Below are positions 156-62,622 of a DNA stretch of 64,000 bases, piece by piece. A program made the position numbers and the translations under genes. Within the stretch, counting starts at the first letter, position 1. Each line of letters opens with the position of its first letter. Under the pieces are notes generated by a model. That model saw nothing but the letters and a program-made list of their open reading frames with translations. It ran no database searches and was not told the origin of the DNA. This DNA is from a virus, in the IMG/VR virus record IMGVR_UViG_3300023178_000030, positions 1 through 64,000 of that record. One strand, given 5' to 3'.

Positions 156-1868
156 ATGTTAAAGTTTAAATATGTGAGATATAAGAATCTGTTAAGTACA
201 GGTAATAACTTTACAGAGATTCAGATTGATAGAAATCCTACAACATTATTTGTAGGTGAAAATGGTGCAGGTAAATCTACCATTCTTGATGCATTATGTT
301 TTGGTTTATTTGGTAGGCCATATCGAACAATCACAAAATCACAATTAGTAAATTCAATAAACGAATCAGGAACTGTAGTTGAAATAGAACTTGAAACAAA
401 TGGTAAGTATGTAAAAATTGTTCGTGGTATGAAACCAAACAAGTTTGAAGTTTATATTGATAACACACTAATGAATCAAGATGCGGCCGCAAAAGATTAT
501 CAAGAACAATTAGAACAACATATTCTAAAATTAAACTATCGTTCATTTACTCAAGTTGTTATTTTAGGAACATCAACATTTGTTCCTTTTATGCAATTGT
601 CATCAAAAGTAAGACGAGAAGTTGTTGAAGATATTTTAGATATAAAGATATTTTCTTTAATGAATGTTATTCTCAAAACAAAAGCAAAAGAACTATTAGA
701 GAATACAACTGCATTAGAAAATAAAATGGTTATCACTCAAAAAGAAATAGACTTACATAAGAAGTATATAAAAGATTTAAGTGAAAACAAAGAATCAATT
801 ATTAAGAGTAACAATGACCAGATATCAGAAAACAATAAAACTATTGATACTAAAACAAAAGAATTAAATACTTTCAAAGAAGAATACGACAAAGAAAATA
901 AAAATATTGATTCTGTTGCATATGAAGAAAGTACAAAGAAAGTTACAAAGATAAATTCAACAAGTGGTAAATTAGAAAACAAGAAATCACATTTTGATAA
1001 TCAGATTGATTGGTGGAAAGATCATGATGATTGTCCAACTTGCGAACAAGTCATTACTGATGAATTTAAACAGAAAAAAATAAATGATTTCAATACAAAG
1101 ATAAAAGAATTAGATAAAGCTTTAGAAGAACTTTCAGATATGGAAAAAACTGAAAAAGGTAAACTATCTGCATGGAATAAATGTAAAACAAAGTTAGATG
1201 GTATTAAAGTAGAAACTGCAAAACTTACAACATCATTAAATGAATTGAAAAAGTTTAATAGTAAATTAGAATCAGATAATACAAAATATAGTAACAAAGA
1301 TATTTCTGATGAAGATGTAAAGAAGTTAGGTTCGCTTGAAGGTGAATTAAAAACACTAGAAGAATTAAAACAAAAATATAATGTAGATAAATTTTACATT
1401 GATGTTGCAAAGAATTTATTACAAGATTCTGGTATTAAAACAAAGATTGTAAAACAATATTTACCTATTATGAATAAGTTAATAAACACTTACTTGACAA
1501 GTATGGACTTTTTTGTTAACTTTAATATTGATGAAAATTTTAATGAAACAATTAAGTCAAGATTTAGAGATGTATTTTCATATGCAAACTTTTCAGAGGG
1601 TGAAAAGATGAGAATAGATTTAGCATTATTATTCACTTGGAGAGCTGTTGCAAAAATGAAAAATAGTGTAAGTACAAATCTATTAATACTTGATGAGATA
1701 TTTGACAGCTCATTAGATGCAAATGGTACAGATGAGTTTTTAAAAATATTAAATACTTTTCAAGATGAAAATATATTTGTTATATCACACAAACAAGATA
1801 TTTTGTATGATAAGTTTAGAAGTGTTGTTCATTTTAAGAAAGAAAGGAATTTTAGTCATATCGTTTAG
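156..1868 (+). CDS. gp46: Recombination endonuclease subunit gp46 (Rad50/SbcC-like ATPase)
   Basis: Walker A GENGAGKST, coiled coil with CPTC zinc hook, FSEGEK signature, LLILDE Walker B. Confidence 0.97.
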   Translation: MLKFKYVRYKNLLSTGNNFTEIQIDRNPTTLFVGENGAGKSTILDALCFGLFGRPYRTITKSQLVNSINESGTVVEIELETNGKYVKIVRGMKPNKFEVYIDNTLMNQDAAAKDYQEQLEQHILKLNYRSFTQVVILGTSTFVPFMQLSSKVRREVVEDILDIKIFSLMNVILKTKAKELLENTTALENKMVITQKEIDLHKKYIKDLSENKESIIKSNNDQISENNKTIDTKTKELNTFKEEYDKENKNIDSVAYEESTKKVTKINSTSGKLENKKSHFDNQIDWWKDHDDCPTCEQVITDEFKQKKINDFNTKIKELDKALEELSDMEKTEKGKLSAWNKCKTKLDGIKVETAKLTTSLNELKKFNSKLESDNTKYSNKDISDEDVKKLGSLEGELKTLEELKQKYNVDKFYIDVAKNLLQDSGIKTKIVKQYLPIMNKLINTYLTSMDFFVNFNIDENFNETIKSRFRDVFSYANFSEGEKMRIDLALLFTWRAVAKMKNSVSTNLLILDEIFDSSLDANGTDEFLKILNTFQDENIFVISHKQDILYDKFRSVVHFKKERNFSHIV

Positions 1869-1880
1869 AAAGGAGTTATA

Positions 1881-2423
1881 ATGGTATATAAATTATTAGA
1901 TTCTTCAAGTCCATCTTTGAGTGTTAAACTACCAGAGATTACTATTGAAGAATTAAAAGAAAAACATAATCTAACACCACAAGAATTAAAAGATAATTTA
2001 GTAAAGACTATGCAGAATTATCGTGGTATAGGTTTGAGTGCGAATCAATGTGGTTTACCTATTCGTGCATTTGTTATGTATACAAATTTACGAACTGATG
2101 AATTTGAATTGTATATTAATCCTAAAATTACATTTGAATCAGAAGAAACAGAAATGTTTACAGAGGGTTGTTTAACATACCCATTTTTGTTTTTAGCATT
2201 GAAAAGACCAAAGTTTATAGAGTTTACATATCTTGATATGGAAGGTAAAGAACAAACTGGTAAATTTACTGGACTAACATCAAGAGTATTTCAACATGAG
2301 TACGATCATATGCAAGGTAAAAACTTTACAATGTTAGCATCTAGATTGAAGTTAGACCTTGCACAAAAGAAAGCAAACAAAAAACTAAAACAAGCCATAA
2401 AAAGAAAAGAAGAAATGTCATGA
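1881..2423 (+). CDS. def: Peptide deformylase
   Basis: Motifs GIGLSANQ, EGCL, HEYDH. Confidence 0.95.
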   Translation: MVYKLLDSSSPSLSVKLPEITIEELKEKHNLTPQELKDNLVKTMQNYRGIGLSANQCGLPIRAFVMYTNLRTDEFELYINPKITFESEETEMFTEGCLTYPFLFLALKRPKFIEFTYLDMEGKEQTGKFTGLTSRVFQHEYDHMQGKNFTMLASRLKLDLAQKKANKKLKQAIKRKEEMS

Positions 2424-3022
2424 GTAAGAAAGTAATATTAACTGATTGTGATGGTGTTCTTTTAGATTGGTATAATCATTTTTCTAAATGGATGGACAAA
2501 AGAGGTTACAAAAGTAGACCAATAGAATCTTATGAAGTTTATGGTCAAGTGTTATTAAAACGATATGATTTAACTTTAGATGAACATGATGCATTATGTC
2601 AAGAATTTAATCATTCTGCATGGGTAAGATTTGTTCCATCAATTAGAGATGCAGTTGCAGGTATAAAAAGATTACATGAAGAATATGGTTATGAGTTTCA
2701 TGTGATAACTGCATTTGGTGGTGATTATTATTCAAAAGCATTACGAGTACATAATCTTAAAAAGTATTTTGGTGAAGCGATTACAAAAGTAGTATGGACA
2801 CCATTTAGAGGAAGTAAACTTGAGGCTCTATCAGAATACAAAGGAACAAATTATTATTGGTTAGATGATAAACCTAGACACGCAGAATCAGGTTTGACAC
2901 ATGGACTGAAATCTGTTATCATGGAACATGATTACAACTTAAAATACAAAGATGAAGGCAAATATCGAAAAGATATACATTTTGTTAAAGACTGGAAACA
3001 TTTCACAGAACTGGTTCAGTAA
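2420..3022 (+). CDS. HAD-family phosphatase / 5'-nucleotidase-like (T4 30.2-like)
   Basis: N-terminal DCDGV and a C-terminal LDDKP motif. Confidence 0.75.
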   Translation: MSKKVILTDCDGVLLDWYNHFSKWMDKRGYKSRPIESYEVYGQVLLKRYDLTLDEHDALCQEFNHSAWVRFVPSIRDAVAGIKRLHEEYGYEFHVITAFGGDYYSKALRVHNLKKYFGEAITKVVWTPFRGSKLEALSEYKGTNYYWLDDKPRHAESGLTHGLKSVIMEHDYNLKYKDEGKYRKDIHFVKDWKHFTELVQ

Positions 3023-3089
3023 GTCCTTGATTTTAAATAATTCTTTTTTCGTTATAAGTATTGACAAATGTTATCAAAACAAGTATAAT
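3020..3089 (+). promoter_or_regulatory. IHF-consensus site plus sigma70-type promoter
   Basis: TAAGTCCTTGATT (reverse complement AATCAAGGACTTA = WATCAR-N4-TTR) at 3020; TTGACA 3061, 17 nt spacer, TATAAT 3084. Confidence 0.8.
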
Positions 3090-3124
3090 GGACTCATAAA
3101 CTTAATTAACTAAAGGAGAGAAAA

Positions 3125-4030
3125 ATGTCACATAATGTAGAAACAATGGCTTATGCAGGTGAAGTTCCATGGCACGGTCTTGGAGAGAAAGTTCCTGCTG
3201 ATTTGACAACTGAACAATTTATGAGAAAAGCAGGTCTTGATTGGAAAGTTGAGAAAGAAACTATTACAACATCATCTGGTGCAGAAGTGCATGGTAAAAG
3301 AGCACTTGTAAGACAATCAGATAATACTGTTTTAGATATTGTTGGTTCTAATTGGAATCCAGTTCAAAATTCAGAAGCATTTGATTTTTTTACTGAATAT
3401 GTAAATGCAGGTGATATGGAAATGCACACAGCAGGTTCGTTGAAAAATGGTGAAATTGTTTGGGCTCTTGCTAAAACAAAAGATTCATTTGAATTATTCA
3501 ATGGTGATATTACTGATAATTATTTCTTATTTACAAACCCACATAAGTTTGGTAAATGTATTGATATCAGAATGACACCTGTTCGAGTTGTATGTAATAA
3601 TACTTTAACATTATCTTTAAATCAAAGTACAGATAAAATGTTAACAGTAAATCATAGAAAACCATTTGATGCAGAAGAAGTTAAACAACAAATGGGTATT
3701 GCAAGAGAAAAGATGGAACAATACAAATCAATGGCACAATTTCTTGGTAAAAAGAGATATACTGCTGAAAATGTTACTGCATACTTCAATGATGTTTTTG
3801 GTGAAAATTCTAGAAACGCTTCACTTGCACATGATAACTTACAAACTCAGCCTGGTGCAAAATATGGTGAGGGTTCTTGGTGGCAAGCATTTAATGCTGT
3901 TACTTACATGACTGACCATTTGCAAGGTAGAGAAAACGATTCAAGACTTGTATCTGCATGGTACGGTAGAAATCGTAAAGTTAAACTCAACGCTTTAGAC
4001 AAAGCACTTGAGTATGCTGAAGTTGCTTAG
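3125..4030 (+). CDS. DUF932 family phage/plasmid protein
   Basis: MAYAGEVPWHGLG N-terminus, TPVRVVCNNTL, WQAFNAVT. Confidence 0.85.
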   Translation: MSHNVETMAYAGEVPWHGLGEKVPADLTTEQFMRKAGLDWKVEKETITTSSGAEVHGKRALVRQSDNTVLDIVGSNWNPVQNSEAFDFFTEYVNAGDMEMHTAGSLKNGEIVWALAKTKDSFELFNGDITDNYFLFTNPHKFGKCIDIRMTPVRVVCNNTLTLSLNQSTDKMLTVNHRKPFDAEEVKQQMGIAREKMEQYKSMAQFLGKKRYTAENVTAYFNDVFGENSRNASLAHDNLQTQPGAKYGEGSWWQAFNAVTYMTDHLQGRENDSRLVSAWYGRNRKVKLNALDKALEYAEVA

Positions 4031-4131
4031 GTTCAGAGGTGGTCCTATTAGGTAGCCTCATATGAACGGATATGTTTTAAAAGTTTTTAATTCGTGAACA
4101 AAAAAAACTTTTATTTTGTTTATACTTTTTG

Positions 4132-4199
4132 TATAAATAGTTATCGTAATATGCCTTACGGGTATTACATTTTAATCTTGCTAAATAGGAGATAATACA
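4132..4199 (+). promoter_or_regulatory. T4-type late promoter plus ROSE-like RNA thermometer in the hsp20 5'UTR
   Basis: TATAAATA 4132-4139; hairpin GTAATATGCC-TTAC-GGGTATTAC; TCTTGCT (4176-4182) can pair with the SD AGGAGA (4187-4192). Confidence 0.65.
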
Positions 4200-4622
4200 A
4201 TGGTAGATTCATTAGCACACCTCGACCCTAGCAGGGTCAAAACATACTCAATTGGTTTTGATAGAATGTTCGACAGATTATGGGAGAATACATATTCTAA
4301 TCAAAGCTACCCACCATACAATATCATTCATGAGAAAGACGACAAGTACAAAATTGAAATTGCACTTGCTGGTTTTCAAAAAGATGATATCGAAATTGAA
4401 ACCAAAGAAAATGTTCTTGTTATAAGAACAAAAGATGTTTCTAAAGATGACGATCAAGATTATCTACACAGAGGTATTTCAAAAAGACATTTTGAAAGAA
4501 AGTTTAACCTTGCTGAAGATGTTGTTGTAAATGGTGCATCATTAGAACATGGACTTTTGGTTATTGACCTTGAAAGAATCATTCCAGAGGAAAAGAAACC
4601 TCGTTTGATAGACATAAAGTAA
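4200..4622 (+). CDS. hsp20: Small heat shock protein Hsp20 (IbpA-like)
   Basis: YPPYNI, IEIALAGF, YLHRGISKR, IPEEKKPRLI. Confidence 0.95.
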   Translation: MVDSLAHLDPSRVKTYSIGFDRMFDRLWENTYSNQSYPPYNIIHEKDDKYKIEIALAGFQKDDIEIETKENVLVIRTKDVSKDDDQDYLHRGISKRHFERKFNLAEDVVVNGASLEHGLLVIDLERIIPEEKKPRLIDIK

Positions 4623-4684
4623 TACTTGACAAATAAGTTTATTTTGTGTTATAATTTGTTTTTAAATCGTTATGGAGATATATT

Positions 4685-4939
4685 ATGTATAAAAAGTTAA
4701 GTAAAACTCAAAAAGTAGTAAATCTACTCATGAAGGGCAAAAATGTTTCTTGGAAAACTTTAAGAAGCAGATTTGACTTAACCTCACCTACGAAGTTAAT
4801 TCATACACTTCGCAAAAGAGGTTTCTGCATTTATGAGAATAAAGTAGATGGTGAAGTCAACTATAGACTTGGAACACCTTCTAAAGCAATCATAGCTGCA
4901 GGAATCGAAAAGGTTCTCGATACACAGTATGCCTATTAA
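4685..4939 (+). CDS. Conserved phage hypothetical protein (winged-HTH-like)
   Basis: Follows promoter TTGACA 4626/TATAAT 4650 and SD GGAG; YRLGTPSKAIIAAG C-terminus. Confidence 0.6.
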   Translation: MYKKLSKTQKVVNLLMKGKNVSWKTLRSRFDLTSPTKLIHTLRKRGFCIYENKVDGEVNYRLGTPSKAIIAAGIEKVLDTQYAY

Positions 4940-5213
4940 AAACTGTAAGTATAATGAGGACAAAATCCTTAAAGATGTTTCAGAGTATGTTGCAAAGACA
5001 TACTCTGAACATTACTCCAGAAATAAATTTCAAGCAACTGAATTTATAATGGACAATGGTCATGGTGAAGGTTTTTGTATTGGCAACATTATGAAGTATG
5101 CACAAAGATACGGAAAGAAAAGTGGATACAATCGTAATGATTTGATGAAAATAATACATTACACAATCATGGCAATTTATAATCATGATGAAATACTGAA
5201 AGGTAAAAAATGA
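4929..5213 (+). CDS. DUF3310-like conserved phage protein
   Basis: GFCIGNIMKYAQRYGKK...DLMKIIHY. Confidence 0.65.
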   Translation: MPIKNCKYNEDKILKDVSEYVAKTYSEHYSRNKFQATEFIMDNGHGEGFCIGNIMKYAQRYGKKSGYNRNDLMKIIHYTIMAIYNHDEILKGKK

Positions 5214-5383
5214 TAAGCAATGTTGATAGGCTAGTTTTCTTGATGGATGAAATAAGAATCTTGAAAGAAAGAATTCAACCTACTGATACAGGACATTTAC
5301 ACACAGCAGTTGGTGTTCTATACACTAGAGTTGAAGAAGTCACTAAACAATTAAATGAGGAAAATCGTAATGAAATTAAGTGA
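5210..5383 (+). CDS. Small hypothetical protein (57 aa; not in ORF track)
   Basis: MISNVDRL...PTDTGHLHTAVGVL...EIK*; overlaps both neighbours in operon fashion. Confidence 0.65.
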   Translation: MISNVDRLVFLMDEIRILKERIQPTDTGHLHTAVGVLYTRVEEVTKQLNEENRNEIK

Positions 5384-6029
5384 AGATACAAGAGAAGTTT
5401 TAAAAAACTTTTCTCAAATTAATCCCAATCTTTTAGTTAAAGGTGGTAGTAAAATTGCTACAATGTCTGCAATGAAAAACATTGTTGCATTGTCTAATGT
5501 ATCAGATAATTTTTCACAAGAGTTTGCAATATATGACTTAAATGAATTCTTATCTGCATTATCATTATTTAAAGAACCTGATTTATCTTTTTCTAATGAT
5601 AGTGTAAAACTTAAAGAACAAAATGGTAACAGTTCTTTAAACTATTATTTTTCAGACCCTTCAATTGTTACTGCACCAAAAACAGAAATAACAATGCCTA
5701 GTGTTGCTGTTGAATTTGTTTTGACAGAAAGTATATTTGCACAAATACAAAAAGCAGCTGCAGTATTGAATGTTCCTGATTTAGTTTTAAAGGGTGCTCA
5801 AGGTTCTGATATTAATCTGTTAATAACAGATAGAAAGAATACATCATCAAATGATTTTTCAATTAAAGTTGGTGAAAATGCAGAATCAGATTTTGCATAC
5901 AATTTTAAAGTAGAAAACTTAAAATTATTATCTGGCGATTATGATGTTAAAGTTAGTGATAAAGGTATCTCTAATTTTAAACATAAGAAAAAAGATATAG
6001 AGTATTTTATTGCACTAGAATCTAACTAA
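5370..6029 (+). CDS. gp45: Sliding clamp gp45
   Basis: MKLSEDTREVLKNFSQIN, FAIYDLNEFL, YFIALE; start placed after SD GAGG. Confidence 0.95.
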   Translation: MKLSEDTREVLKNFSQINPNLLVKGGSKIATMSAMKNIVALSNVSDNFSQEFAIYDLNEFLSALSLFKEPDLSFSNDSVKLKEQNGNSSLNYYFSDPSIVTAPKTEITMPSVAVEFVLTESIFAQIQKAAAVLNVPDLVLKGAQGSDINLLITDRKNTSSNDFSIKVGENAESDFAYNFKVENLKLLSGDYDVKVSDKGISNFKHKKKDIEYFIALESN

Positions 6030-6049
6030 TAATCGTTAGGAGTTATATA

Positions 6050-6988
6050 ATGAATGATGTGATGCTTTGGGTCGAGAAGTATCGACCCAATAAGATTGGT
6101 GATTGTATTTTACCAAAAGAAATAAAAAATACATTTCAAAAATTTGTAGATAATAAACACATACCTAATTTACTATTATCAGGTAAGCCTGGTGTAGGAA
6201 AGACTACTGTTGCAAAGGCAGTATTAGAAGAATTAGGTTGTACTTATATTCTAATCAATGGTTCTGATGAAGGTAGACAGATAGATGTTTTAAGAACAAA
6301 GATAAAAAACTTTGCTTCTACAATGTCTATTGGTGGTGAAAGAAAGTATGTTATTCTTGACGAGGCAGACTATCTCAATCCTGAATCTGTTCAACCTGCA
6401 TTAAGAAGTTTTATTGAAGAATTTCATAAGAATTGTGGTTTCATATTTACTTGTAATTACAAAAACAAAATTTTAGAACCTTTACAATCAAGATGTTCTA
6501 ATGTTGATTTTGTAATACCCACAGCTGAGAAACCAAAACTTGCACAAACTTTTTTCAAAAGAATAGAAACTATTTTAACTCAAGAAGAAATTGATTTTGA
6601 ACCAAGACCAGTTGTTGAATTGATTCAAAAACATTTCCCTGATTGGAGAAGAATACTTAATGAGTTACAAAGATATTCTGCATCAGGTAAAATTGATTCA
6701 GGTATATTAGTTAGTATTTCAGAAACTAATATGAAAGATTTAGTAACATTCTTAAAAGAAAAAGATTTTAAATCTATTCGTAAATGGGTTGTAAACAATC
6801 TTGATAATGATGCATCTATATTTAAAAAGATATATGATACATTATATGAAAAGATTGAACCATCAACTGTACCACATTTAGTTTTGTTAGTTGCAGATTA
6901 TCAATACAAGTCTGCATTTGTAGCCGATCAAGAAATTAATATGTTGGCATTTATGTTAGAAACCATGTCACAAGTGAAGTTTAAGTAA
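6050..6988 (+). CDS. gp44: Clamp loader ATPase subunit gp44
   Basis: LWVEKYRP, GKPGVGKT, DEAD, SRC motifs. Confidence 0.97.
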   Translation: MNDVMLWVEKYRPNKIGDCILPKEIKNTFQKFVDNKHIPNLLLSGKPGVGKTTVAKAVLEELGCTYILINGSDEGRQIDVLRTKIKNFASTMSIGGERKYVILDEADYLNPESVQPALRSFIEEFHKNCGFIFTCNYKNKILEPLQSRCSNVDFVIPTAEKPKLAQTFFKRIETILTQEEIDFEPRPVVELIQKHFPDWRRILNELQRYSASGKIDSGILVSISETNMKDLVTFLKEKDFKSIRKWVVNNLDNDASIFKKIYDTLYEKIEPSTVPHLVLLVADYQYKSAFVADQEINMLAFMLETMSQVKFK

Positions 6989-7374
6989 TGTATGAATTAA
7001 AAGATTATCTAAACGCAATTAATTACACAAAAGAAAAGTTACTAGATAGTGATGATGAAACTTGGAAGAAGAAATATCCACCTTACATTGTTAATAAATG
7101 TCTAGCACCACACAATGACACAATTATGTTAGTCAATGAGATTAACATGAGGCATCATTTAGATAAAAAGTTACAGTTTGACTTTTTGATAAATAGTATT
7201 AGAAAGCGAAAGCGATTTGAACCTTATGTCAGAAGTGGTAAAATTAAAGACATAGAGTATGTAAAAGAGTATTATGGTTACAGTAATGAAAAGGCTAAAA
7301 CTGCTCTGAAGATACTAACCAAAGAACAAATAACCACTATAAGAAAAAAACTAAACAAAGGTGGAAGAAAATGA
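6988..7374 (+). CDS. gp62: Clamp loader small subunit gp62
   Basis: Synteny; LQFDFLINSIRKRKRF, VKEYYGYSNEKA. Confidence 0.92.
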   Translation: MYELKDYLNAINYTKEKLLDSDDETWKKKYPPYIVNKCLAPHNDTIMLVNEINMRHHLDKKLQFDFLINSIRKRKRFEPYVRSGKIKDIEYVKEYYGYSNEKAKTALKILTKEQITTIRKKLNKGGRK

Positions 7375-7778
7375 ATGATGTAATATGGAATCCAGAGCAG
7401 ATGCTCGAAATCAAACTAAAAGAACCAGATGACTTTTTAAAAGTTAGAGAAACACTTTCAAGAATAGGTGTTGCATCTCGAAAAGAAAAAAAGTTATATC
7501 AAAGTTGTCACATCCTACACAAACAGGGAAGTTATTATCTAGTACATTTTAAAGAATTGTTTGCACTAGATGGTAAAACCACAAACATTTCAAGTAACGA
7601 CATTGCAAGAAGAAATTCTATAGCTCAACTATTAAAAGATTGGGGTTTAGTCGAAGTAGTTGGTAACATAGATAACAAAGCACCACTTTCCCAAATCAAA
7701 GTGATTTCATTTAAAGAAAAGGGTGAATGGATTTTAGAAACAAAATATAATATTGGAAATAAAAGGACAGAAGAATGA
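7371..7778 (+). CDS. regA: Translational repressor RegA
   Basis: DDFLKVRETLSRIG, LYQSCHILHKQG, VHFKELF. Confidence 0.96.
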   Translation: MNDVIWNPEQMLEIKLKEPDDFLKVRETLSRIGVASRKEKKLYQSCHILHKQGSYYLVHFKELFALDGKTTNISSNDIARRNSIAQLLKDWGLVEVVGNIDNKAPLSQIKVISFKEKGEWILETKYNIGNKRTEE

Positions 7779-8020
7779 TTATAAAAGCTTTACGAGCAAA
7801 ATACAAATATGAAATTGCATCTGCAAAGGCAAACATTGAAGTGTATAGGAATAATCCAGTTGGTGTAGGAGAACATCCTGATTTAGTGAGTGCAGTAGAT
7901 TGTGAATTGAAAAAACTTACTGACGCAGAGGATAAATTAAATACACTTATTAAGCATTACCCATATGAAGCCCATGGAGAAGATGATCCTGAAAAGAATC
8001 AAGAAACTCTTTTTGGTTAA
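7775..8020 (+). CDS. Conserved phage hypothetical protein
   Basis: NPVGVGEHPDLV motif; translationally coupled to regA. Confidence 0.65.
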   Translation: MIIKALRAKYKYEIASAKANIEVYRNNPVGVGEHPDLVSAVDCELKKLTDAEDKLNTLIKHYPYEAHGEDDPEKNQETLFG

Positions 8021-8024
8021 TTCG

Positions 8025-8094
8025 TAAGTCCCTGATTTTAAACAAATCTTTTTTGGTATTTTGTATTGACAACAAACCAGTATTTTGATAAAAT
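8025..8094 (+). promoter_or_regulatory. IHF-consensus site plus sigma70-type promoter
   Basis: TAAGTCCCTGATT at 8025; TTGACA 8066, 17 nt spacer, TAAAAT 8089. Confidence 0.8.
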
Positions 8095-8127
8095 ATTATT
8101 ATTAACTAAACAAATATGAGATAAATT

Positions 8128-9726
8128 ATGATTATGAAATTAATTGAAAATGCTAAACAGTTACTAACTGTACCAGAAGAATTAAAAGAAGAGTTTGAAA
8201 GTGATAAGAGAATATGGACTAGAGTTGAAATTCCTATCGAATTATATTTCAAACTTTCAATGACGGATAACTATTCTTTTAAACATTACCCTCCAAATAA
8301 AAATCAAGTTATTGATCCTAATGATAAATGTAATAGAACTGATAGAAATGATTTGTTGAAAAAACAAGGAATTTTAAAGTGTATATTTGCAGGAATGCCT
8401 ATTCCAGATTTGTCTTTAGTCATTAAAAATAAAAGAAGAAGTATACTTGATGTGAAACAACAAGTTGCTTCAGTTAATGATGGTGGCCACAGAAGTAGAA
8501 CAATTATAGAATTTAAAGCAAATCAAATTAAAACAAGTCCTGATACTGTTTTCTATACTGAAAATAATACTGAAATAAAAATTGGTGATATGACTTATGA
8601 CGAAATTAAAAAGAAATTTCCTAATGCAGTCAAAAAATTTGACGGATATCTTTTGTGTTTAACACTTCAATGGAATCTTGATTCTAAACAAAGAAAAATG
8701 GATTTTGATTGTAGAAATACTCAAAACAAAATTGAAAGACAAGAAGGTAGAAATGCTAATGACGATAATAGAGTTGCTGATGGTGTTCGTAATGCTGTTA
8801 ATAAAATTTTCGGTGAAATAGATGCACGACCTGTTCACAATGTTTTTACAAAAGATGTTTTAGGTTTTAAAAATGATAAAATGGTTTATGATGAAATTGT
8901 TGCAAAGATAATGAAAATGAATCATGAATATGAAGAGCATGGTGGTCATACAGATTTAACTAATGATTCATTAGATGAATTTTATCTAAAAGGTAGTTAT
9001 GCAGGAACTGATAATGGTATCTTTTATAAAAACACAAAGCAATTCAAGAAGTTATTAGATAATACTTATAAAGTTTTAGATTTTTTAGAAGGTGTATTAA
9101 CTGAATGGCCTCAAAAAATTTATGCAAAGAAACAATTAGTTGTTCATGCACTTTTAAGATGGTATTTTCAATATAAAAAAGATTTACAAAATGAAAATCT
9201 TTCTTTAGAATACAATGGAACATTTCGTATTGATTACAAAAAGTTTGCCACACAGTTTGCTAAAGTTGTTATGTTGGAAAATACAAACAATGAAGAAACA
9301 GGTAAATGGACAGGTAAAGAAAAACTTCCTAGAGTATTTGGTGAAGCATTTACTGGTTTTCTAGGTCATTTTAAAAATGATATTAAAATGCAATTAAGTG
9401 TTAAATGGATAATGAATAGTTTTTATGATTCACTTAAAACATTAGAAGATGAAGAAAAATTTGGTTTAACACATTTCGATAGTAGACCTTCTTTTAATAC
9501 TAAAGATATTATTCAAAAATGGATGGATAACGGTGAAAAAGATTGTTTAAAAAACGAACCTGTAAGTTCTGATGATATACAAGGTGACCATGCAATTCCT
9601 AGAAGTCATGGTGTAGTTGCAGGTGGTGTAACCGAGAAATCAAACCTTAAGATTCTTCACAAAGATGATAACAATAAAAAGTCAGATAGAACATTTGAAG
9701 AATATAAGAAAGTTATCAACGAATGA
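8128..9726 (+). CDS. DUF262(ParB-like)-HNH protein, GmrSD/SspE-like nuclease
   Basis: GMPIP and DGGHR (DGQQR-like) in the N-terminal half; C-terminal HNH GDHAIPRSHG...GGVTEKSNL...NNKKSD. Confidence 0.7.
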   Translation: MIMKLIENAKQLLTVPEELKEEFESDKRIWTRVEIPIELYFKLSMTDNYSFKHYPPNKNQVIDPNDKCNRTDRNDLLKKQGILKCIFAGMPIPDLSLVIKNKRRSILDVKQQVASVNDGGHRSRTIIEFKANQIKTSPDTVFYTENNTEIKIGDMTYDEIKKKFPNAVKKFDGYLLCLTLQWNLDSKQRKMDFDCRNTQNKIERQEGRNANDDNRVADGVRNAVNKIFGEIDARPVHNVFTKDVLGFKNDKMVYDEIVAKIMKMNHEYEEHGGHTDLTNDSLDEFYLKGSYAGTDNGIFYKNTKQFKKLLDNTYKVLDFLEGVLTEWPQKIYAKKQLVVHALLRWYFQYKKDLQNENLSLEYNGTFRIDYKKFATQFAKVVMLENTNNEETGKWTGKEKLPRVFGEAFTGFLGHFKNDIKMQLSVKWIMNSFYDSLKTLEDEEKFGLTHFDSRPSFNTKDIIQKWMDNGEKDCLKNEPVSSDDIQGDHAIPRSHGVVAGGVTEKSNLKILHKDDNNKKSDRTFEEYKKVINE

Positions 9727-55788: not shown

Positions 55789-56049
55789 ATGAATACATAT
55801 CAAGAATTTGCAAACTACTGCTACGATTTCTACGGTAAAAACGGTACTTTTGAATTAAACTATACTAGAAAACAAATTGCCGCAGGCATTTATTCTTATC
55901 TCTTAAAATTAAATGATGACATTACCTGGGGTGGTGGTGACAGTATCGACAGAGAAAGAGTTAGAATCGAAATGCAAAAACTTTATCCAGAAGTTGAAAA
56001 TTTGGCAGAAGTTGCACTTGACAATTTTAAAGTTAAAGGAATATTATGA
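55789..56049 (+). CDS. Hypothetical early protein
   Basis: F..YC.DFYG..G; WGGGDSIDRE.VR. Confidence 0.65.
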   Translation: MNTYQEFANYCYDFYGKNGTFELNYTRKQIAAGIYSYLLKLNDDITWGGGDSIDRERVRIEMQKLYPEVENLAEVALDNFKVKGIL

Positions 56050-56240
56050 AAAAATACTTACCAACAATTCAAGTTATTATCGGCTTCTTTGGTGTTCTTT
56101 TATGTTTTGGTGCAGTTGGAACTGTTGAAGTCGAAGAAAATCCTGATTACATGATAGTAATTATTCAAGGTCTTTCAGGTTTATTATTATTGTTTTTATC
56201 AATGTTAATTCCTTTCACTACGGAGAAAAATGATGACTAA
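56046..56240 (+). CDS. Small two-helix membrane protein
   Basis: Two hydrophobic segments. Confidence 0.6.
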   Translation: MKKYLPTIQVIIGFFGVLLCFGAVGTVEVEENPDYMIVIIQGLSGLLLLFLSMLIPFTTEKNDD

Positions 56241-56796
56241 ATTTTTATTTAAATTATGTGTTTTCATGTTAGGTTTATATTTGTTTGTTATTTTCAATAT
56301 ACAAGAAAAAATTCATACATCAACAGATAGAGTTGATAAGTTAGAAACAAAATATCTTAACATCAACTACGAAGATTTAAATGCAGAACATCAAAAAGAT
56401 ATTGATTGTCTTGCAAGTAACATTTATTTTGAAGCTCGTGGTGAACCAACAAAAGGTAAAGTTGCAGTTGCAATGGTTACTTTAAATAGAGTTGTATCAA
56501 AAGATTTTCCTAATACAGTATGTGGTGTTGTTCTTCAGAGAACTAAAAAAGTATGTCAATTTTCTTGGTTCTGTCAAAAGAGAGAAAGTTGGTTACATAG
56601 GAGTGCAAGAGTTAAATCTAAAAAACATTATGATGATATAGAAAATCTTGCAGTAAAAGTCTATACAAATTATCAAACATTAAAGAAAGAAGATTTAACT
56701 TATGGTTCTACTTTTTATCATGCAACTTATATAAACCCAAAATGGGATTTGTATAAAACTAGAACTATTGGTAATCATACTTTTTACAAACATTGA
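56230..56796 (+). CDS. Second cell wall hydrolase (SleB/Hydrolase_2) with N-terminal membrane anchor
   Basis: CLA.NIYFEARGE, VTLNRV, CQFSW, FYHA, IGNH.FY. Confidence 0.9.
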   Translation: MMTKFLFKLCVFMLGLYLFVIFNIQEKIHTSTDRVDKLETKYLNINYEDLNAEHQKDIDCLASNIYFEARGEPTKGKVAVAMVTLNRVVSKDFPNTVCGVVLQRTKKVCQFSWFCQKRESWLHRSARVKSKKHYDDIENLAVKVYTNYQTLKKEDLTYGSTFYHATYINPKWDLYKTRTIGNHTFYKH

Positions 56797-56835
56797 CTTG
56801 ACAAACAATAATTTTTATGATAATATTTCTGTGTT

Positions 56836-57195
56836 ATGAGTAAACGAATTAATAAAAAACATTATATTGATGACTGGAGAGAAAATAATAAGTTTCTCAA
56901 AAGATTAAATTTATCAAAGATTACTTTAGAAGAATATATAGATGAAAGACACGGTAAAGGTAAATACAAACCTAGAGTGTTAGATACTTTTACAGTAACA
57001 AAGAGTTATGTTAGGACAACAGAACATATTCCTAGTTTATCAATGTCTACTAGAGGTGATTGTTCTAAAAGAGATAATTCTGAAAAACTCAAAGTTAGTA
57101 GTAAATATATAATAGGTCAGGCTTATAATAAAGGTGGGTTTCAAGTGTTGACTGATTTTGAATCAAAAGACCCACAAACAGGAAAGAGAAGATAA
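56836..57195 (+). CDS. Conserved phage hypothetical protein
   Basis: IGQAYNKGG.QV; promoter TTGACA at 56798. Confidence 0.65.
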   Translation: MSKRINKKHYIDDWRENNKFLKRLNLSKITLEEYIDERHGKGKYKPRVLDTFTVTKSYVRTTEHIPSLSMSTRGDCSKRDNSEKLKVSSKYIIGQAYNKGGFQVLTDFESKDPQTGKRR

Positions 57196-58041
57196 TTGTT
57201 TTTTGCGTTTATTACATTAATTATTGCGATTAGTATTAGTGCAGTTGCGGCTTACTATTCTATTATAGGTTTAGTTGCAATTTTTTCAAGTGCAGTATTA
57301 CCAGTTGCAATCATGGGCATAGTGTTAGAAGCAGGTAAGTTAGTTACTGCATCATGGTTATATCAAAATTGGAAACGAATAAATTTTGTTATCAAAACAT
57401 ATCTAACATTTGCAGTAGTAGTATTGATGTTCATTACATCTATGGGTATCTTTGGTTTTTTATCTAAAGCTCATATAGACCAAACATTGACAAGTGATAC
57501 ATCAAATATCGAAATCGAAAGAATCGAATCATTAATCACAATAGAAAATAGGAGAATTGAAAATGCTCAAAAAAATCTTGACAACCTTGAACGGCTGGTG
57601 GAAAACCTGTCAGCAGAAGATGCTGCTTATACTCGCAGAATTCAAAGACGAGAACGAAGTGCAATTGACAAAACCATCAAAGAAGCCAGTCAGAAAATCT
57701 CGAACTACAAAGAAGAAATCATCCCCTACAAAAAAGAAGCAGTCAAGCTCGAGGCGGAAGTCGGCCCGATAAAATATATTTCTGAACTAATTTATGATAA
57801 CTCTAACTCTGAACTATTAGAAGATGCAGTTAGGGTTGTCATAATTATTTTAGTATTTGTATTTGATCCACTTGCAGTTGTATTACTCATTGCGGCTAAT
57901 ATGTCATTTCAACAAGAGAAGTTGCGAAGAAAAAGAAAACGACAAGCTCAAATCAAGAAAGAACTACCTCAAAAGAAAAAGGGTGAAATGGTAAAAGTTA
58001 CCAGAGAACTCAATGGTGTTTCAACCACTACTTACGAATAA
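57196..58041 (+). CDS. Membrane protein with coiled coil
   Basis: Three N-terminal TM segments (ITSMGIFGFLSKAH), coiled coil, EVGPIKYI, FVFDPLAV. Confidence 0.75.
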   Translation: MFFAFITLIIAISISAVAAYYSIIGLVAIFSSAVLPVAIMGIVLEAGKLVTASWLYQNWKRINFVIKTYLTFAVVVLMFITSMGIFGFLSKAHIDQTLTSDTSNIEIERIESLITIENRRIENAQKNLDNLERLVENLSAEDAAYTRRIQRRERSAIDKTIKEASQKISNYKEEIIPYKKEAVKLEAEVGPIKYISELIYDNSNSELLEDAVRVVIIILVFVFDPLAVVLLIAANMSFQQEKLRRKRKRQAQIKKELPQKKKGEMVKVTRELNGVSTTTYE

Positions 58042-58126
58042 TTACAAACTCATTACAATAAAATCACTTTTTATTTTTTTGTAATATTTTCGTGTTAAAT
58101 AATATGTGTAATGTGAAGGAGAAATT

Positions 58127-58711
58127 ATGAAACATTTATTATTAATATTTTTTATGTTATTTTCATTACCAGTTTTTGCAGATGATAGAAACTGGGAAAA
58201 GTCAGAACATAATATAAACATTAAACACAATAACTTTGGTCTTAACATTCGTCAGTATGCACAAGATGATTATGACCATATTCAATTTGAATACAATGTA
58301 GTCAAGAGTGTGAAACTTGCATTAAGACTTGCAGAAGAAGGTGAAATCAAAGAAAAAAGACCAAGTATCACTCATACTGTTGGTAAGTTTGGGCCTATAA
58401 AAGTTGCACATAGATTAGGTTATAGAATGTATGAGAGTGATTTAAAATCTGATTTTGCAAGATATAGAATCATACTTGGTGCGAACTATGGTATGTTTTG
58501 GACTAAAGTACAACCAAGATGGAAAGTTGGTGGTGAAGGTGTTCATGTAGATGCAAAAATAGATGACATTAAATCTTCAGTTGGTATCAAACTAAACTTG
58601 AATGAACATACAACATTTAAACCATATGTTGAATATCTTGCAGATGGTGAATTAAATGATTATAAGAAAAAATATGTGATGTTGGGTACTGAACTAACAT
58701 TTAAATTTTAG
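58127..58711 (+). CDS. Small outer-membrane beta-barrel (porin-like)
   Basis: Signal peptide ending VFA; alternating amphipathic strands; C-terminal LGTELTFKF (BAM-type terminal Phe). Confidence 0.75.
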   Translation: MKHLLLIFFMLFSLPVFADDRNWEKSEHNINIKHNNFGLNIRQYAQDDYDHIQFEYNVVKSVKLALRLAEEGEIKEKRPSITHTVGKFGPIKVAHRLGYRMYESDLKSDFARYRIILGANYGMFWTKVQPRWKVGGEGVHVDAKIDDIKSSVGIKLNLNEHTTFKPYVEYLADGELNDYKKKYVMLGTELTFKF

Positions 58712-58823
58712 TGAAACCAGAAATTAAAAAATTGATAAGACAAATAATTTTTGAAATAATATTGCCAGTAGCATTACTTATTTGGTTTATGTTATGGTTA
58801 TTAGGGCCAGTAGGAAAAGGTTA

Positions 58824-59126
58824 ATGTATAGTACATTAAGAGAAACATTACAAGAGAGATATGGAGATAATAGGAGACTTTATCTCCAAGCTCTCTATCT
58901 TAATGTTGAAGTTGGCCCATATACACCAGACCCTGTCGAGGGAATGTATGCATTAGAAAATTACAAGTATGGTAATTTAGAATTTGATGAAGCTATTTCA
59001 CACATAAACAAAAACAGAAAAAAGACATTCGATTTACAACAATACAATGATGACTGGCAAGAATATTTAAATTTATGTGAAAAGGAAATATTAGATGAAA
59101 AAGATAATAGAGAAAATAAAACTTAA
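58824..59126 (+). CDS. Hypothetical protein
   Basis: SD AAGG before MYSTLRE. Confidence 0.55.
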   Translation: MYSTLRETLQERYGDNRRLYLQALYLNVEVGPYTPDPVEGMYALENYKYGNLEFDEAISHINKNRKKTFDLQQYNDDWQEYLNLCEKEILDEKDNRENKT

Positions 59127-59181
59127 ATTCAAATACAAATCTACTATGTGGGTGAAACCATATTTTGAAGATTGTTTATAA
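59095..59181 (+). CDS. 28-aa peptide ending MWVKPYFEDCL
   Basis: SD AAGGA; stops immediately before the terminator. Confidence 0.4.
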   Translation: MKKIIEKIKLKFKYKSTMWVKPYFEDCL

Positions 59182-59183
59182 AC

Positions 59184-59218
59184 AAAAAAAGGGAGTATAA
59201 AAACTCCCTTTTCTTTTT
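59184..59218. terminator. Bidirectional Rho-independent terminator
   Basis: A7-GGGAGT-ATAAA-ACTCCC followed by a T run. Confidence 0.8.
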
Positions 59219-59234
59219 CTATTTGAAATAAAAT

Positions 59235-59306
59235 TTACTTGTTTGCAATGTACATTGTAACTTCAAAACCAAATCTCATTTCAGTATATTCTGGTGACTT
59301 CCACAT
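59235..59306 (-). CDS. pqqA: Pyrroloquinoline quinone precursor peptide PqqA (23 aa; not in ORF track)
   Basis: MWKSPEYTEMRFGFEVTMYIANK*: W..P leader, RFGF and invariant E-x3-Y core; SD TAAGGAG 7 nt before the ATG. Confidence 0.95.
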   Translation of the reverse strand: MWKSPEYTEMRFGFEVTMYIANK

Positions 59307-59398
59307 AATACTTCTCCTTAATAATTATTAACACTAATATATATAATAAACACAAAAAAATCACATAGTGATAATCATTAAAATCAAGTGAGAAAATC

Positions 59399-59632
59399 AT
59401 GAAAAAAGAAGATGCTAAAATAATCTTACTAAAAGATGTTATTGAAACAAAACTACGAAAAGAAAAAGAATTAGATTACTATCAAAAACAACTTGAAGAG
59501 CTTCAGATGAAAATGGTGTTTCTAAAAAAAGATATTCATTTAACTAACACTATTATTAATATTATCGAAAGTGAAAATATTATGCAATTAGAACCTTTAA
59601 TACTTGACAAAAACATAAGAGATGAGTTATAA
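59399..59632 (+). CDS. Coiled-coil hypothetical protein
   Basis: DVIE..LRKEKEL.YY...LEEL. Confidence 0.65.
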   Translation: MKKEDAKIILLKDVIETKLRKEKELDYYQKQLEELQMKMVFLKKDIHLTNTIINIIESENIMQLEPLILDKNIRDEL

Positions 59633-59654
59633 TTACTGTTCTTTCTTAAAATAA

Positions 59655-59729
59655 AAGAGTATGTAAGGCGCTAGTATTCGTGATGAAGTTGAGTCTGGAT
59701 TCAGGTGCTAGGTCTTACATATTCCTCTT
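59655..59729 (+). ncRNA. Candidate structured RNA downstream of a sigma70 promoter
   Basis: GTATGTAAGGC pairs with GTCTTACATAT; CTAGTA pairs with TGCTAG; promoter TTGACA 59604/TATAAT 59628. Confidence 0.5.
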
Positions 59730-59735
59730 ACGATT

Positions 59736-59984
59736 ATGAAAAAATATATCCATGTAGACACAATCAAAATCAGAACTAACATCAAAAAGAAAAAGTTAGA
59801 CCCTAACTATGAGGTTGAGCCTGTTGTTATTGTTAGAACTAAAAGTAAAGTATTAGAGAAATGTCATGAGGTCGAAATACTAGGCCCAAGTAAAGTTGTA
59901 TATGCAGAAGGTGGTGAGAAAATACTGAACTGTGGTGCAAGAACTGTAATTGAAACAGAAAGTGAAATAAAGGTGATAAGATGA
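59736..59984 (+). CDS. Conserved phage hypothetical protein
   Basis: CHEVEILGPSKVVY...L.CGAR.VIET. Confidence 0.7.
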   Translation: MKKYIHVDTIKIRTNIKKKKLDPNYEVEPVVIVRTKSKVLEKCHEVEILGPSKVVYAEGGEKILNCGARTVIETESEIKVIR

Positions 59985-60712
59985 TGTTTAATTTAAATAA
60001 AACAATTGAAGTCCATTGTTATACATGGAGAAAAATAAATGCAGAAGAATTTTGTATTAAAGAGATGAAACCACATAGACCAAAATGGTTTAGAGATATG
60101 GGAAAAATGACTGGAACTAAATGGAATCTTCCAAAGTTAAATATAAAACATTGTCATGGTATTCTTGAATTATTTAAAAGAAGTTTTTATCTTCCTTTAT
60201 GGACTGACTTATATATTATTAATGAAATGCATGATATAAATGCTATATCGAAAGATTCTTACCTGATAGTTTCAAAACATTTTGATAAAGCTAATTCACA
60301 AGCTCCAACTTTATCAGAAAAACACAGAAATCTTAAAATAGATGCTCCTTGGATTTTTGATTGTGATAAAGATATTAATTTTTATATTACTGGTGCATCA
60401 TGGGATTATATAAACAACGACTTATTTTATAATTTTCATTTACCTCCAGCTATACTCGATTTTAAGTATCAATCATGTCTTAATACACAATGGTTATTTC
60501 CAATACCATTTACAAAAGAACAAGAAACTTGTATAAGTTTTCAAGCAGGTGATCCATTATATTACATAACTCCATTAACAGATAAAAAAGTTAAATTTAT
60601 AAGTCATTGTATTACTAAAACAGAATTTTTTGATAAATTTGATAGTTTAGATCGTACTACTTCGTTTTGGTCAAATGCTTATGCAAGAGGAAAAAAACTA
60701 ATGGGTAAATGA
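59981..60712 (+). CDS. Hypothetical protein, paralog of 61326..62057
   Basis: P.WF, K.C.G..LF, P.W.D, PW.F, GASWDYINN, F.AGDP. Confidence 0.7.
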   Translation: MMFNLNKTIEVHCYTWRKINAEEFCIKEMKPHRPKWFRDMGKMTGTKWNLPKLNIKHCHGILELFKRSFYLPLWTDLYIINEMHDINAISKDSYLIVSKHFDKANSQAPTLSEKHRNLKIDAPWIFDCDKDINFYITGASWDYINNDLFYNFHLPPAILDFKYQSCLNTQWLFPIPFTKEQETCISFQAGDPLYYITPLTDKKVKFISHCITKTEFFDKFDSLDRTTSFWSNAYARGKKLMGK

Positions 60713-61323
60713 TGGAACAAGTATTAGAGAATTTTTATACTGAAGATGAGATAGATAGAATTTGGAAAGAAATACAATATTTAGATTCTAATACTTATGG
60801 TTGGGCATATCCAAATCCACAAATAAATGCAGTTGATAAAAAAGGTAATCTACTATTACAAGGTGCAAGACAATTTAAGTTTAGTATATTTGGTTATAAT
60901 AACCTTGAACTGTTGAGAAAGTCTAACATTTATACTTCAGGTAAAAAACTTATGAATTACCATGATTATTTAGTTGGTAAACATGATATTTATAAAAATA
61001 TTAAGGAATTAGATCGTCATTTTTCTTTTTTAAATTACTACTATAAAGATGATGGTTGTTACAAATTACATCATGATATATCCATGTATACAATGTTATC
61101 GTATTTTTACGAAGAGCCTAAAAATTTTACAGGTGGTCAATGTCTTGTAGGAAATAACAAATATGAAATACATAATGGATTTACAATCGTGTTACCAGGC
61201 TGGTTAAAACATGGTTCAACACCAATAAAAATAATCGATAAATCTAGAAAAAAATCTGGAAGATATTCTATTGCACACTTTTTCTGGTCAGCAAACTCTA
61301 ACGATTTTGAGAGGAAATCATAA
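60709..61323 (+). CDS. 2OG-Fe(II) oxygenase
   Basis: YKLHHD, FTGG, H, RYSI. Confidence 0.8.
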   Translation: MMEQVLENFYTEDEIDRIWKEIQYLDSNTYGWAYPNPQINAVDKKGNLLLQGARQFKFSIFGYNNLELLRKSNIYTSGKKLMNYHDYLVGKHDIYKNIKELDRHFSFLNYYYKDDGCYKLHHDISMYTMLSYFYEEPKNFTGGQCLVGNNKYEIHNGFTIVLPGWLKHGSTPIKIIDKSRKKSGRYSIAHFFWSANSNDFERKS

Positions 61324-61325
61324 AT

Positions 61326-62057
61326 ATGATGTTCAATTTTAATAAAACAGTTGAAATTCATTGTTACACATACAATAAATTTATTGCAGATAATTTTTGT
61401 GTACAAGAAATGAAAACTACAAGACCATCATGGTTTAAAAACTTACCTAAAAAATCTGAAAAAAAATCAACAATGAAAAGTTGTTATGGTTTTATAAATT
61501 TATTTAAAAAAGGATTTGTTCTCCCTTTTTGGAGTGATATTGAAATTACAAACACAATAGAAGAATTGGTTGTAAATTGTGCAAATCAAGATACAACTAA
61601 TGTTTTACATCACTTAAATCCAAATAATTCATCGGCTGAAACTTTATCAACATATCACCGTCATGCACAAATACAACCACCTTGGGTTTTTACATCTGAC
61701 AAACCTACTGAATTTGCAGTTGTAGGTGCTTCATGGGATTATATAAACAATAATCTATATGATTTTCATTTACCCACAGGTATTATTGATTTTAAATACA
61801 ACAATACAATTAATGTACAAATGTTGTTTCCTAAACCAACTGGAAATCAAAGACAATCAAATATAATTTTTAAAGCTGGCGATCCAATATTATATTTGAT
61901 TCCTTTAACTGAAAAGAAAGTTAAATTTATTACACATAATATTACTAGAATGGAATATTATGATATGATAGACAATGTAGATTCAAAGTCACATTTTTTT
62001 AGTAACAAATATGTTAGGTCTAGAACATATGGATATAAAGGATATATGAAGGAGTAA
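61326..62057 (+). CDS. Hypothetical protein, paralog of 59981..60712
   Basis: Same motifs: MMFN.NKT.E.HCYT, GASWDYINN, KKVKFI. Confidence 0.7.
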   Translation: MMFNFNKTVEIHCYTYNKFIADNFCVQEMKTTRPSWFKNLPKKSEKKSTMKSCYGFINLFKKGFVLPFWSDIEITNTIEELVVNCANQDTTNVLHHLNPNNSSAETLSTYHRHAQIQPPWVFTSDKPTEFAVVGASWDYINNNLYDFHLPTGIIDFKYNNTINVQMLFPKPTGNQRQSNIIFKAGDPILYLIPLTEKKVKFITHNITRMEYYDMIDNVDSKSHFFSNKYVRSRTYGYKGYMKE

Positions 62058-62059
62058 TT

Positions 62060-62305
62060 ATGACACCACAAGAATCAAATACCCTATATAGATTACATAC
62101 AGTAATAATGCAAGAGATCGAAAACTATCACTTTAGAGGTCAATATGACTATCATTTGAGAGTGAGAGTTGAAGATGATGAGATAAAATTTAGATATTTA
62201 AATGAGTGGCATCCTATATCAAAAGAAACACTATTTAAGATGTTAAAACAGAGTAACTTACCACAAAGTTTATATACTAAATTAATGTTAAGGATAGTAC
62301 AATGA
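62060..62305 (+). CDS. Hypothetical protein
   Basis: SD AAGGAG. Confidence 0.6.
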   Translation: MTPQESNTLYRLHTVIMQEIENYHFRGQYDYHLRVRVEDDEIKFRYLNEWHPISKETLFKMLKQSNLPQSLYTKLMLRIVQ

Positions 62306-62622
62306 TTAAATTTATTTTAATGTTTTTATTTACATTCAATGTCTATGCAACAGATGAAGGTTACAAGATGTTGAAGAACAACAATTGTTTAGCTTGTCAT
62401 GCAGTTGATAAAACACTAGTAGGCCCATCATATCAAGATGTTGCGAAGAAATATGAGAATGACGATAGAAGTATTGTAGTACCTGTTCTTGCAAGAAAGA
62501 TGCGTGAAGGTGGAGTTGGTAATTGGGGAGTTATTCCTATGCCACCAATGAACTTAAGACATAATCAATCAGAGTATATAGTTAAGTGGATTTTGAATAG
62601 AGAGTGGGAAACTACTAAATAA
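62302..62622 (+). CDS. Class I cytochrome c (c551/c552 type)
   Basis: Signal peptide; CLACH heme motif; VGPSY..VA.KY; G.WG.IPMPP with the axial Met. Confidence 0.93.
   Translation: MIKFILMFLFTFNVYATDEGYKMLKNNNCLACHAVDKTLVGPSYQDVAKKYENDDRSIVVPVLARKMREGGVGNWGVIPMPPMNLRHNQSEYIVKWILNREWETTK

Follow-up and report, generated by a model that had tools for sequence, protein, structure and literature searches.

What would a phage gain from carrying a 72-bp gene for one peptide of a cofactor pathway? In PQQ synthesis, PqqD binds the PqqA peptide and PqqE joins its Glu and Tyr residues by a cross-link; after trimming, PqqB and PqqC oxidise the product, and one PqqA peptide is consumed for each PQQ cofactor made (Barr et al. 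2016 and Zhu and Klinman 2020, cited in PMC7678222 and PMC9851590). A first-pass annotation placed such a gene on the minus strand at 59235-59306 and proposed that the virus supplies the substrate alone, leaving the enzymes to its host. The window, by which we mean the whole 64-kb stretch of DNA analysed here, is the first 64 kb of a linear 78,962-bp IMG/VR virus record with 30% GC and an estimated completeness of 53%.

A complete PqqA peptide with its own expression signals

The features at the locus are as follows.

59235..59306, minus strand: pqqA CDS, 23 codons plus TAA (translation; PF08042 and TIGR02107 matches)
59314..59320, minus strand: Shine-Dalgarno sequence TAAGGAG, 7 nt before the ATG at 59306-59304 (read from the sequence)
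59187..59212, no strand assigned: bidirectional intrinsic terminator hairpin, GGGAG/CUCCC stem extended by A/U pairs (fold and terminator scan)
59335..59385, minus strand: AT-rich block upstream of pqqA, kept in the relative L250 (pairwise alignment)

Translation of the minus strand reproduces the earlier reading exactly, giving the 23 residues MWKSPEYTEMRFGFEVTMYIANK and then TAA. The assignment to PqqA likewise holds up, as both curated models match the ORF far above their cut-offs: the match to the TIGR02107 equivalog spans all 21 model positions at 44 bits (cut-off 20, E 1.3e-11), and that to Pfam PF08042 (PqqA) spans all 19 positions at 38.5 bits (cut-off 21.1, E 1.1e-9). When all six frames of the complete 78,962-bp record are searched, 59235-59306 is the sole PqqA match (E 1.6e-11). 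The leader carries W2 and P5, E15 and Y19 lie within G-F-E-V-T-M-Y, and the conserved positions W2, P5, G13, E15, V16, T17 and Y19 are all present. The phage peptide therefore has the size and leader of the family (about 20-40 residues, N-terminal W-x-x-P) as well as its G-x-E-V-T-x-Y motif with the Glu-x3-Tyr pair. The ORF is a genuine member of the PqqA family and not a chance frame, and from the motif E15 and Y19 are the predicted cross-linked pair.

Co-occurrence with pqqB, C, D and E in one genome, another mark of the family, is not seen in this record, which is about 53% complete. As the annotation had stated for the window, tblastn with PqqB, PqqC, PqqD and a partial PqqE, all taken from a bacterial contig mislabelled as an Acinetobacter phage, returned nothing in the window or in the 78,962-bp record. 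A gene for a PQQ-dependent alcohol or methanol dehydrogenase was not found in the record either.

The ORFs on either side, 58782-59126 and 59399-59632, both lie on the plus strand, so that pqqA is antisense to both. The Shine-Dalgarno sequence TAAGGAG is present at 59320-59314 at the spacing given above, and the terminator said to lie just downstream is a hairpin at 59187-59212 with a folding energy of -18.6 kcal/mol (z = -4.1; 0 of 200 shuffles fold as well). A terminator scan also detects this hairpin, with 0.1 expected by chance, and a T-run follows it on the minus strand at about 59190-59184. With A-runs at one flank and T-runs at the opposite flank, the hairpin can also terminate the convergent plus-strand gene 58782-59126. 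No strict sigma-70 consensus promoter is present on the minus strand in 59307-59400; the AT-rich block at 59335-59385 is a candidate for the pqqA promoter. The earlier view of pqqA as its own transcription unit set against plus-strand genes is supported by the opposite orientation, the ribosome binding site and the terminator, but not by a strict sigma-70 promoter. A separate, 12-of-12 sigma-70 consensus (TTGACA, 18 nt, TATAAT) occurs on the plus strand at 59604-59633, at the end of ORF 59399-59632, and faces the genes from 59736 onward. An Rfam scan of 58000-60500 gave nothing near gathering score.

Contigs of three metatranscriptomes were placed on 56000-62000; such contigs cannot show the strand, the ends or the level of a transcript. 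In the bin 59216-59416, summed contig depths reach 834, 8216 and 4269, compared with at most 30 elsewhere. These deep contigs part from the phage at the edges of the ORF, with loose ends at 59228, 59241 and 59310, and were rejected as phage pqqA message, since they run into unlike sequence there and come from the pqqA of other organisms. The RNA-library contigs that contain the phage's own flanks are shallow, no deeper than those on adjacent genes, and may stem from carried-over DNA. As an observation on the communities themselves, the contigs matching the pqqA ORF alone, at depths of 834-8216, hint at very abundant pqqA messages in salt-marsh and aquatic communities.

The record is a Melnitz-like T4-type myophage

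The phage origin claimed for this DNA is upheld by a T4-type gene set. The record encodes a gp46-type SbcC-like ATPase, a DnaB-type helicase, a ribonucleotide reductase whose small-chain ORF has a glutaredoxin domain at its N-terminus, and a B-family DNA polymerase. Its structural and lysis genes comprise a baseplate tail-tube cap, a gp53 wedge protein, a tail protein and a SleB-type endolysin, and it further encodes a C5 methyltransferase, a PurN-like formyltransferase and several 2OG-Fe(II) oxygenases. For the gp46-like protein, identity is 60% with Melnitz, 47% with pelagimyophage HTVC008M and about 46% with cyanomyophages; the record is therefore a Melnitz-like T4-type marine myophage. The closest cultured phage is Methylophilales phage Melnitz (Kyanoviridae), which infects OM43 strain H5P1. 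A 5-kb piece used as a megablast query matched none of the GenBank phages. DNA of the record was detected in salt-marsh metagenomes, which are its probable source, and partially in marine, estuary and seawater metagenomes. The PurN-like formyltransferase lies at record positions 76287-76901 (PF00551, 134 bits), and methylotroph viruses of Lake Baikal likewise carry purine-synthesis genes (PMC7678222).

Proposed role as a substrate for the host PQQ pathway

We favour the reading, at a probability of roughly 0.8, that phage pqqA provides host PqqBCDE with the substrate peptide that the pathway uses up. The 23-residue peptide would be translated during infection from its own small transcription unit and handed to the host PQQ pathway, where the chaperone PqqD would bind it and the radical-SAM enzyme PqqE would cross-link Glu15 to Tyr19; host proteases, PqqB and PqqC would then complete the cofactor. 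Because the peptide is destroyed for every PQQ made while the host enzymes are reusable, a 72-bp substrate gene would be the cheapest route by which a phage could keep or raise the PQQ supply of a periplasmic PQQ-dependent dehydrogenase. In the likely OM43-like host, the enzyme served would be the XoxF-type methanol dehydrogenase, and sustained PQQ would maintain energy flow while the phage replicates. In one methylotroph, which has five copies of the gene, transcription of pqqA increases with the rate of PQQ synthesis (PMC9851590). 

This is the inference that the first-pass annotation had drawn, and it gains support from the family assignment, the expression signals, conservation, the absence of pqqB-E from the record, and the presence of the pathway and of dispersed pqqA copies in candidate hosts. 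Transcription, translation in infection, processing by the host and a fitness benefit are parts of it that we infer. Recognition of the diverged phage leader and tail by host PqqD and PqqE is assumed, as is a limiting role of PqqA in OM43. Culture medium for OM43 usually contains added PQQ (PMC9004378), which could hide an effect of phage pqqA in culture.

An OM43-like methylotroph is the probable host

A pattern for the peptide core has at least 120 matches in species-representative bacterial genomes, and those listed fall mostly in Methylophilaceae or likely Methylophilaceae MAGs. The listed carriers include Methylotenera, Methylophilus, Methylovorus, Methylobacillus, Ca. Methylopumilus and an OM43 single-cell genome, with a minority of listed matches in other Burkholderiales, Rhodocyclaceae and Pseudomonadales. 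Five OM43-genus genomes (about 1.3 Mb each) all carry pqqE (>516 bits) and an XoxF-type dehydrogenase (>588 bits). Each of the five also has three pqqA genes, a lone copy and a tandem pair, at distances of over 100 kb from pqqE. Dispersed copies number three in Ca. Methylopumilus and four or five in larger Methylophilaceae. A stand-alone pqqA feeding a distant pqqBCDE is therefore the normal arrangement in Methylophilaceae, one that the phage copy imitates, and the partners missing from the record would be supplied by the host in trans, as the hosts' own pqqA copies are unlinked.

The suggestion that the peptide core resembles Methylophilaceae or betaproteobacterial PqqA, and that the gene hints at the host, holds up. 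Residues 8-19 are identical to those of OM43 PqqA and are shared with other Methylophilaceae, and the closest cultured phage infects OM43. Overall, the peptide matches OM43 copies at 17 of 23 residues and differs at positions 3, 4, 6, 7, 20 and 21; its leader (P-E-Y) and tail (I-A-N-K) are not of Methylophilaceae type and resemble copies from high-GC Burkholderiales, Rhodocyclaceae and Pseudomonadales. The tail variant is absent from all 361 Methylophilaceae species genomes, so the assignment of an OM43-like marine methylotroph as the host is probable but not certain.

These differences are the main grounds for a second reading, in which the peptide does the same job in another host, a low-GC marine proteobacterium outside Methylophilaceae, and the PQQ serves alcohol, glucose or other quinoprotein dehydrogenases. 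Non-Methylophilaceae MAGs of Burkholderiales, Rhodocyclaceae and Pseudomonadales do have the P-E-Y / I-A-N-K type, none of the 361 Methylophilaceae genomes has the tail, and the gp46 protein is merely 60% identical to that of Melnitz. However, among the matches listed, the bacterial carriers of that type all have 53-70% GC, compared with 30% for the phage; the core is identical to that of OM43 PqqA, and the host of the closest cultured phage is OM43. Melnitz PqqA has a diverged tail despite its OM43 host, which argues that phage copies drift outside the core. The nearest peptide among the copies compared, with two differences and the I-A-N-K tail, is encoded at 1714-1785 (minus strand) of contig L094 (4986 bp, 39% GC). 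Four upstream genes of this contig are collinear with a bacterial genome, L231, at 44-82% amino-acid identity. The pqqA of L231 itself is of Methylophilaceae type, and the L094 gene may be a chromosomal copy from the true host lineage. We consider a host outside Methylophilaceae unlikely on this evidence, and supply of the peptide to an OM43-like host remains the preferred reading.

pqqA is retained among methylophages

Searching the peptide by tblastn against 50,697 GenBank phage records matched 12 of them: MEP301, P19250A, MEP401, MEP402, Venkman, four Melnitz records, one spring metagenome virus and two contigs of a record mislabelled as an Acinetobacter phage. One of the latter two was opened and is a bacterial pqqABCDE locus. 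In the true phage copies the ORF is intact at 23-24 codons, and AAGGA or AGGAG stands upstream in six cultured or GenBank phage records. Carriers of a stand-alone pqqA span Kyanoviridae, Zobellviridae and unclassified Caudoviricetes. The gene is unannotated or overlain by a called opposite-strand ORF in all seven GenBank loci that were opened (Melnitz EXVC044M, MEP301, P19250A, MEP402, Venkman, ctXG6705 and the mislabelled Acinetobacter contig), and in the hit table the other matching records show no feature, or only 'hypothetical protein', under the match. Tblastn with PqqB-E found nothing in the six cultured-phage loci or in the 120 IMG/VR loci listed.

A relative of this phage, the IMG/VR contig L250 (also L108), was found through a neighbouring gene and hence independently of pqqA. 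Its pqqA has the same neighbours, at about 78% nucleotide identity, and again lies on the strand opposite to them; the contig keeps GAGGAG at the Shine-Dalgarno position, the AT-rich upstream block, and a hairpin of unlike sequence followed by a T-run. Its PqqA differs from that of the window at four residues, all in the leader (positions 3, 4, 6 and 8). The T4-like IMG/VR relatives L064, L100 and L108 all carry pqqA, with UvsX 57-81% and polymerase 42-45% identical. In L100 the gene order is UvsX, cytochrome c, MazG, pqqA, gp5, and in Melnitz pqqA likewise precedes gp5. Tblastx of the Melnitz pqqA region against this record found no counterpart, so that pqqA has been kept in the clade while its genome position has changed. 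Conservation in related phages, on which the proposal depended, is thus evident in the Melnitz, MEP and Venkman records and in L250/L108, L064 and L100. Residence in a true phage genome together with retention in relatives, as expected of an auxiliary metabolic gene, is seen in L250/L108, L064, L100 and Melnitz.

Pooled over eight phage pqqA copies, pN/pS is 0.23, a value drawn from only 23 codons and from copies sampled partly by similarity. Within core residues 8-19 of these copies, pS is 0.63 and pN is 0.06, although most copies in the test were found by amino-acid similarity, which biases it towards conservation. A scan of IMG/VR used a degenerate DNA pattern for the 11-residue core, for which at least 120 contigs match; core conservation among them arises by construction and is no evidence. 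The ORF is intact in all 120 contigs listed. Of these, 84 share proteins with cultured methylophage loci or with this record, 22 match bacterial pqqA loci in their flanks (many at 80-97% identity), one belongs to both groups and 15 belong to neither. About 22 of the 120 (for example L047, L043, L032 and L040) are probably host chromosome or prophage-flank DNA, and a figure of 'more than 120 viral contigs' therefore needs a discount. Single-linkage clustering of flanking proteins was also tried for counting phage lineages and was set aside as uninformative, as mosaicism produced one giant component.

These comparisons bear on a third reading, in which pqqA plays no part in infection and is neutral cargo, a moron captured recently from a host. 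The gene lies within a mosaic accessory region that is rearranged between relatives, and its nucleotide sequence is still close to bacterial pqqA, at 84% identity over 70 nt (positions -12 to +57 of the window gene). Against this, the Shine-Dalgarno sequence and terminator are kept in relatives whose neighbouring genes are only 39-78% alike, pqqA occurs across unrelated phage families, and the core amino acids are fixed even though synonymous sites approach saturation. Divergence from all host copies further indicates that the capture was not recent. Neutral carriage is accordingly very improbable in our judgement, and we return to the preferred reading of a peptide retained for the host PQQ pathway.

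Respiratory genes in the accessory neighbourhood

The accessory region that holds pqqA also contains a gene for an electron carrier, 3 kb away.

62302..62622, plus strand: exported class I cytochrome c-551/552 (PF00034, PDB match, CxxCH)

The assignment rests on a PF00034 score of 28.9 bits against a cut-off of 21.3 and on a match to PDB cytochromes c-551/c-552 (E 2.5e-20); the product has a CxxCH, a Met-ligand motif and a signal-like N-terminus. No homologue was found at E <= 1e-3 in the 50,697 GenBank phage genomes. OM43-genus genomes have homologues of 43-47% identity that are unlinked to pqqA, and the T4-like relative L100 has one 1.2 kb from pqqA. Two further contigs, L263 and L264, were dropped as phage pairs of cytochrome c and pqqA (1.3 kb apart), as their local genes are bacterial in type (porins, D-Ala-D-Ala carboxypeptidase, lipase, FecR); both contigs, although filed as viral, are probably host chromosome or prophage-flank DNA. 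Just beyond the window, at record positions 64369-64740 and about 5 kb from pqqA, lies a gene for an A-type Fe-S carrier (PF01521, 65 bits). Fe-S scaffold genes have been reported as auxiliary genes of other OM43 phages (PMC10580990).

Tentatively, and with more doubt than conviction, pqqA of the T4-like clade might be viewed as part of a phage set for quinoprotein respiration that comprises PqqA, the exported cytochrome c-551/552 and the A-type Fe-S carrier. In such a set, the cytochrome would carry electrons from the periplasmic dehydrogenase and the Fe-S carrier could serve Fe-S enzymes such as PqqE.

Two other neighbours deserve mention. The plus-strand ORF 58127-58711 encodes 194 residues with a signal-like N-terminus and a C-terminal aromatic residue, is 74% identical in two related viral contigs, and has no Pfam or PHROG match; its product is possibly an outer-membrane beta-barrel. 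The SleB-type endolysin gene at 56230-56796 (plus strand, PF07486) has homologues that adjoin pqqA in divergent orientation in at least seven viral loci (L011, L026, L039, L093, L102, L104 and L121), so that pqqA tends to border the lysis module.

The same genes weigh on the idea that the peptide is a decoy or regulator that binds host PqqD/PqqE or another target and blocks or redirects PQQ synthesis. Residues outside the core are indeed unlike those of host copies. Yet E15, Y19 and the G-x-E-V-T-x-Y context needed for cross-linking are all kept, the equivalog score extends over the full length, and a respiratory cytochrome c and an Fe-S carrier in the phage fit support of energy metabolism over sabotage, all of which makes a decoy highly improbable. 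Recombinases near pqqA in MEP301, P19250A and Venkman could recall integration into host pqqA, but a remnant carried from such a site is scarcely credible here, given a T4-type lytic genome with no integrase among its annotated genes, a complete ORF with its own Shine-Dalgarno sequence, and similarity to bacterial copies that stops at the ORF and Shine-Dalgarno sequence (median alignment 74 nt).

Significance and comparison with known systems

Provision of a substrate peptide to host PqqBCDE would mean that 72 bp encoding the one consumed component of a pathway suffices, so that little DNA is needed to steer host metabolism and the reusable enzymes are left to the host. Gene callers skip pqqA in phage genomes. 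The search of 50,697 phage genomes found the gene in methylophage records, in one spring virus and in one mislabelled bacterial contig but nowhere else, and it could serve as a compact marker for methylotroph phages. OM43 bacteria link algal methanol to CO2, and phage control of the PQQ supply would therefore bear on coastal carbon turnover.

The concept of a viral pqqA is already published. PqqA was described as an auxiliary metabolic gene in Methylophilaceae viruses of Lake Baikal, population VP_266 (Coutinho et al. 2020, Microbiome 8:163, PMC7678222), where it was proposed to boost PQQ-dependent methanol oxidation in the methylotrophic host (PMC7678222), and a 2026 reservoir study lists pqqA among virus-encoded genes (PMC13188868). 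The present case adds breadth and no new principle. The presence of pqqA in cultured methylophages goes unmentioned in the Coutinho et al. 2020 paper, the Melnitz paper and the MEP40x papers.

Like VP_266, the record encodes the PqqA precursor peptide in a phage genome. The Baikal virus is from freshwater and encodes a methanol dehydrogenase, whereas this record is of marine or salt-marsh origin, lacks the dehydrogenase and belongs to a T4-type myophage; its peptide also has a diverged leader and tail. The gene resembles the orphan pqqA genes of Methylophilaceae (the OM43 genus, Ca. Methylopumilus, Methylotenera and Methylophilus) in its 23 residues, its core 8-19 and its stand-alone position far from pqqBCDE, but it differs from them in being borne by a virus and in having a tail variant foreign to the 361 species genomes. 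Melnitz, L100, L064 and L108 are phages of the same type, each with one stand-alone pqqA. Melnitz and L100 have the gene in the same orientation as its neighbours, immediately before the gene for the gp5 baseplate hub; in this record, by contrast, it is antisense and lies between the baseplate/lysis block and an accessory island. The present record contributes a Melnitz-like clade with a diverged PqqA leader and tail and with a cytochrome c and an Fe-S carrier nearby, and the analysis adds an estimate, from the 120 contigs listed, of about one fifth for the share of host DNA among the 'viral' pqqA contigs of IMG/VR.
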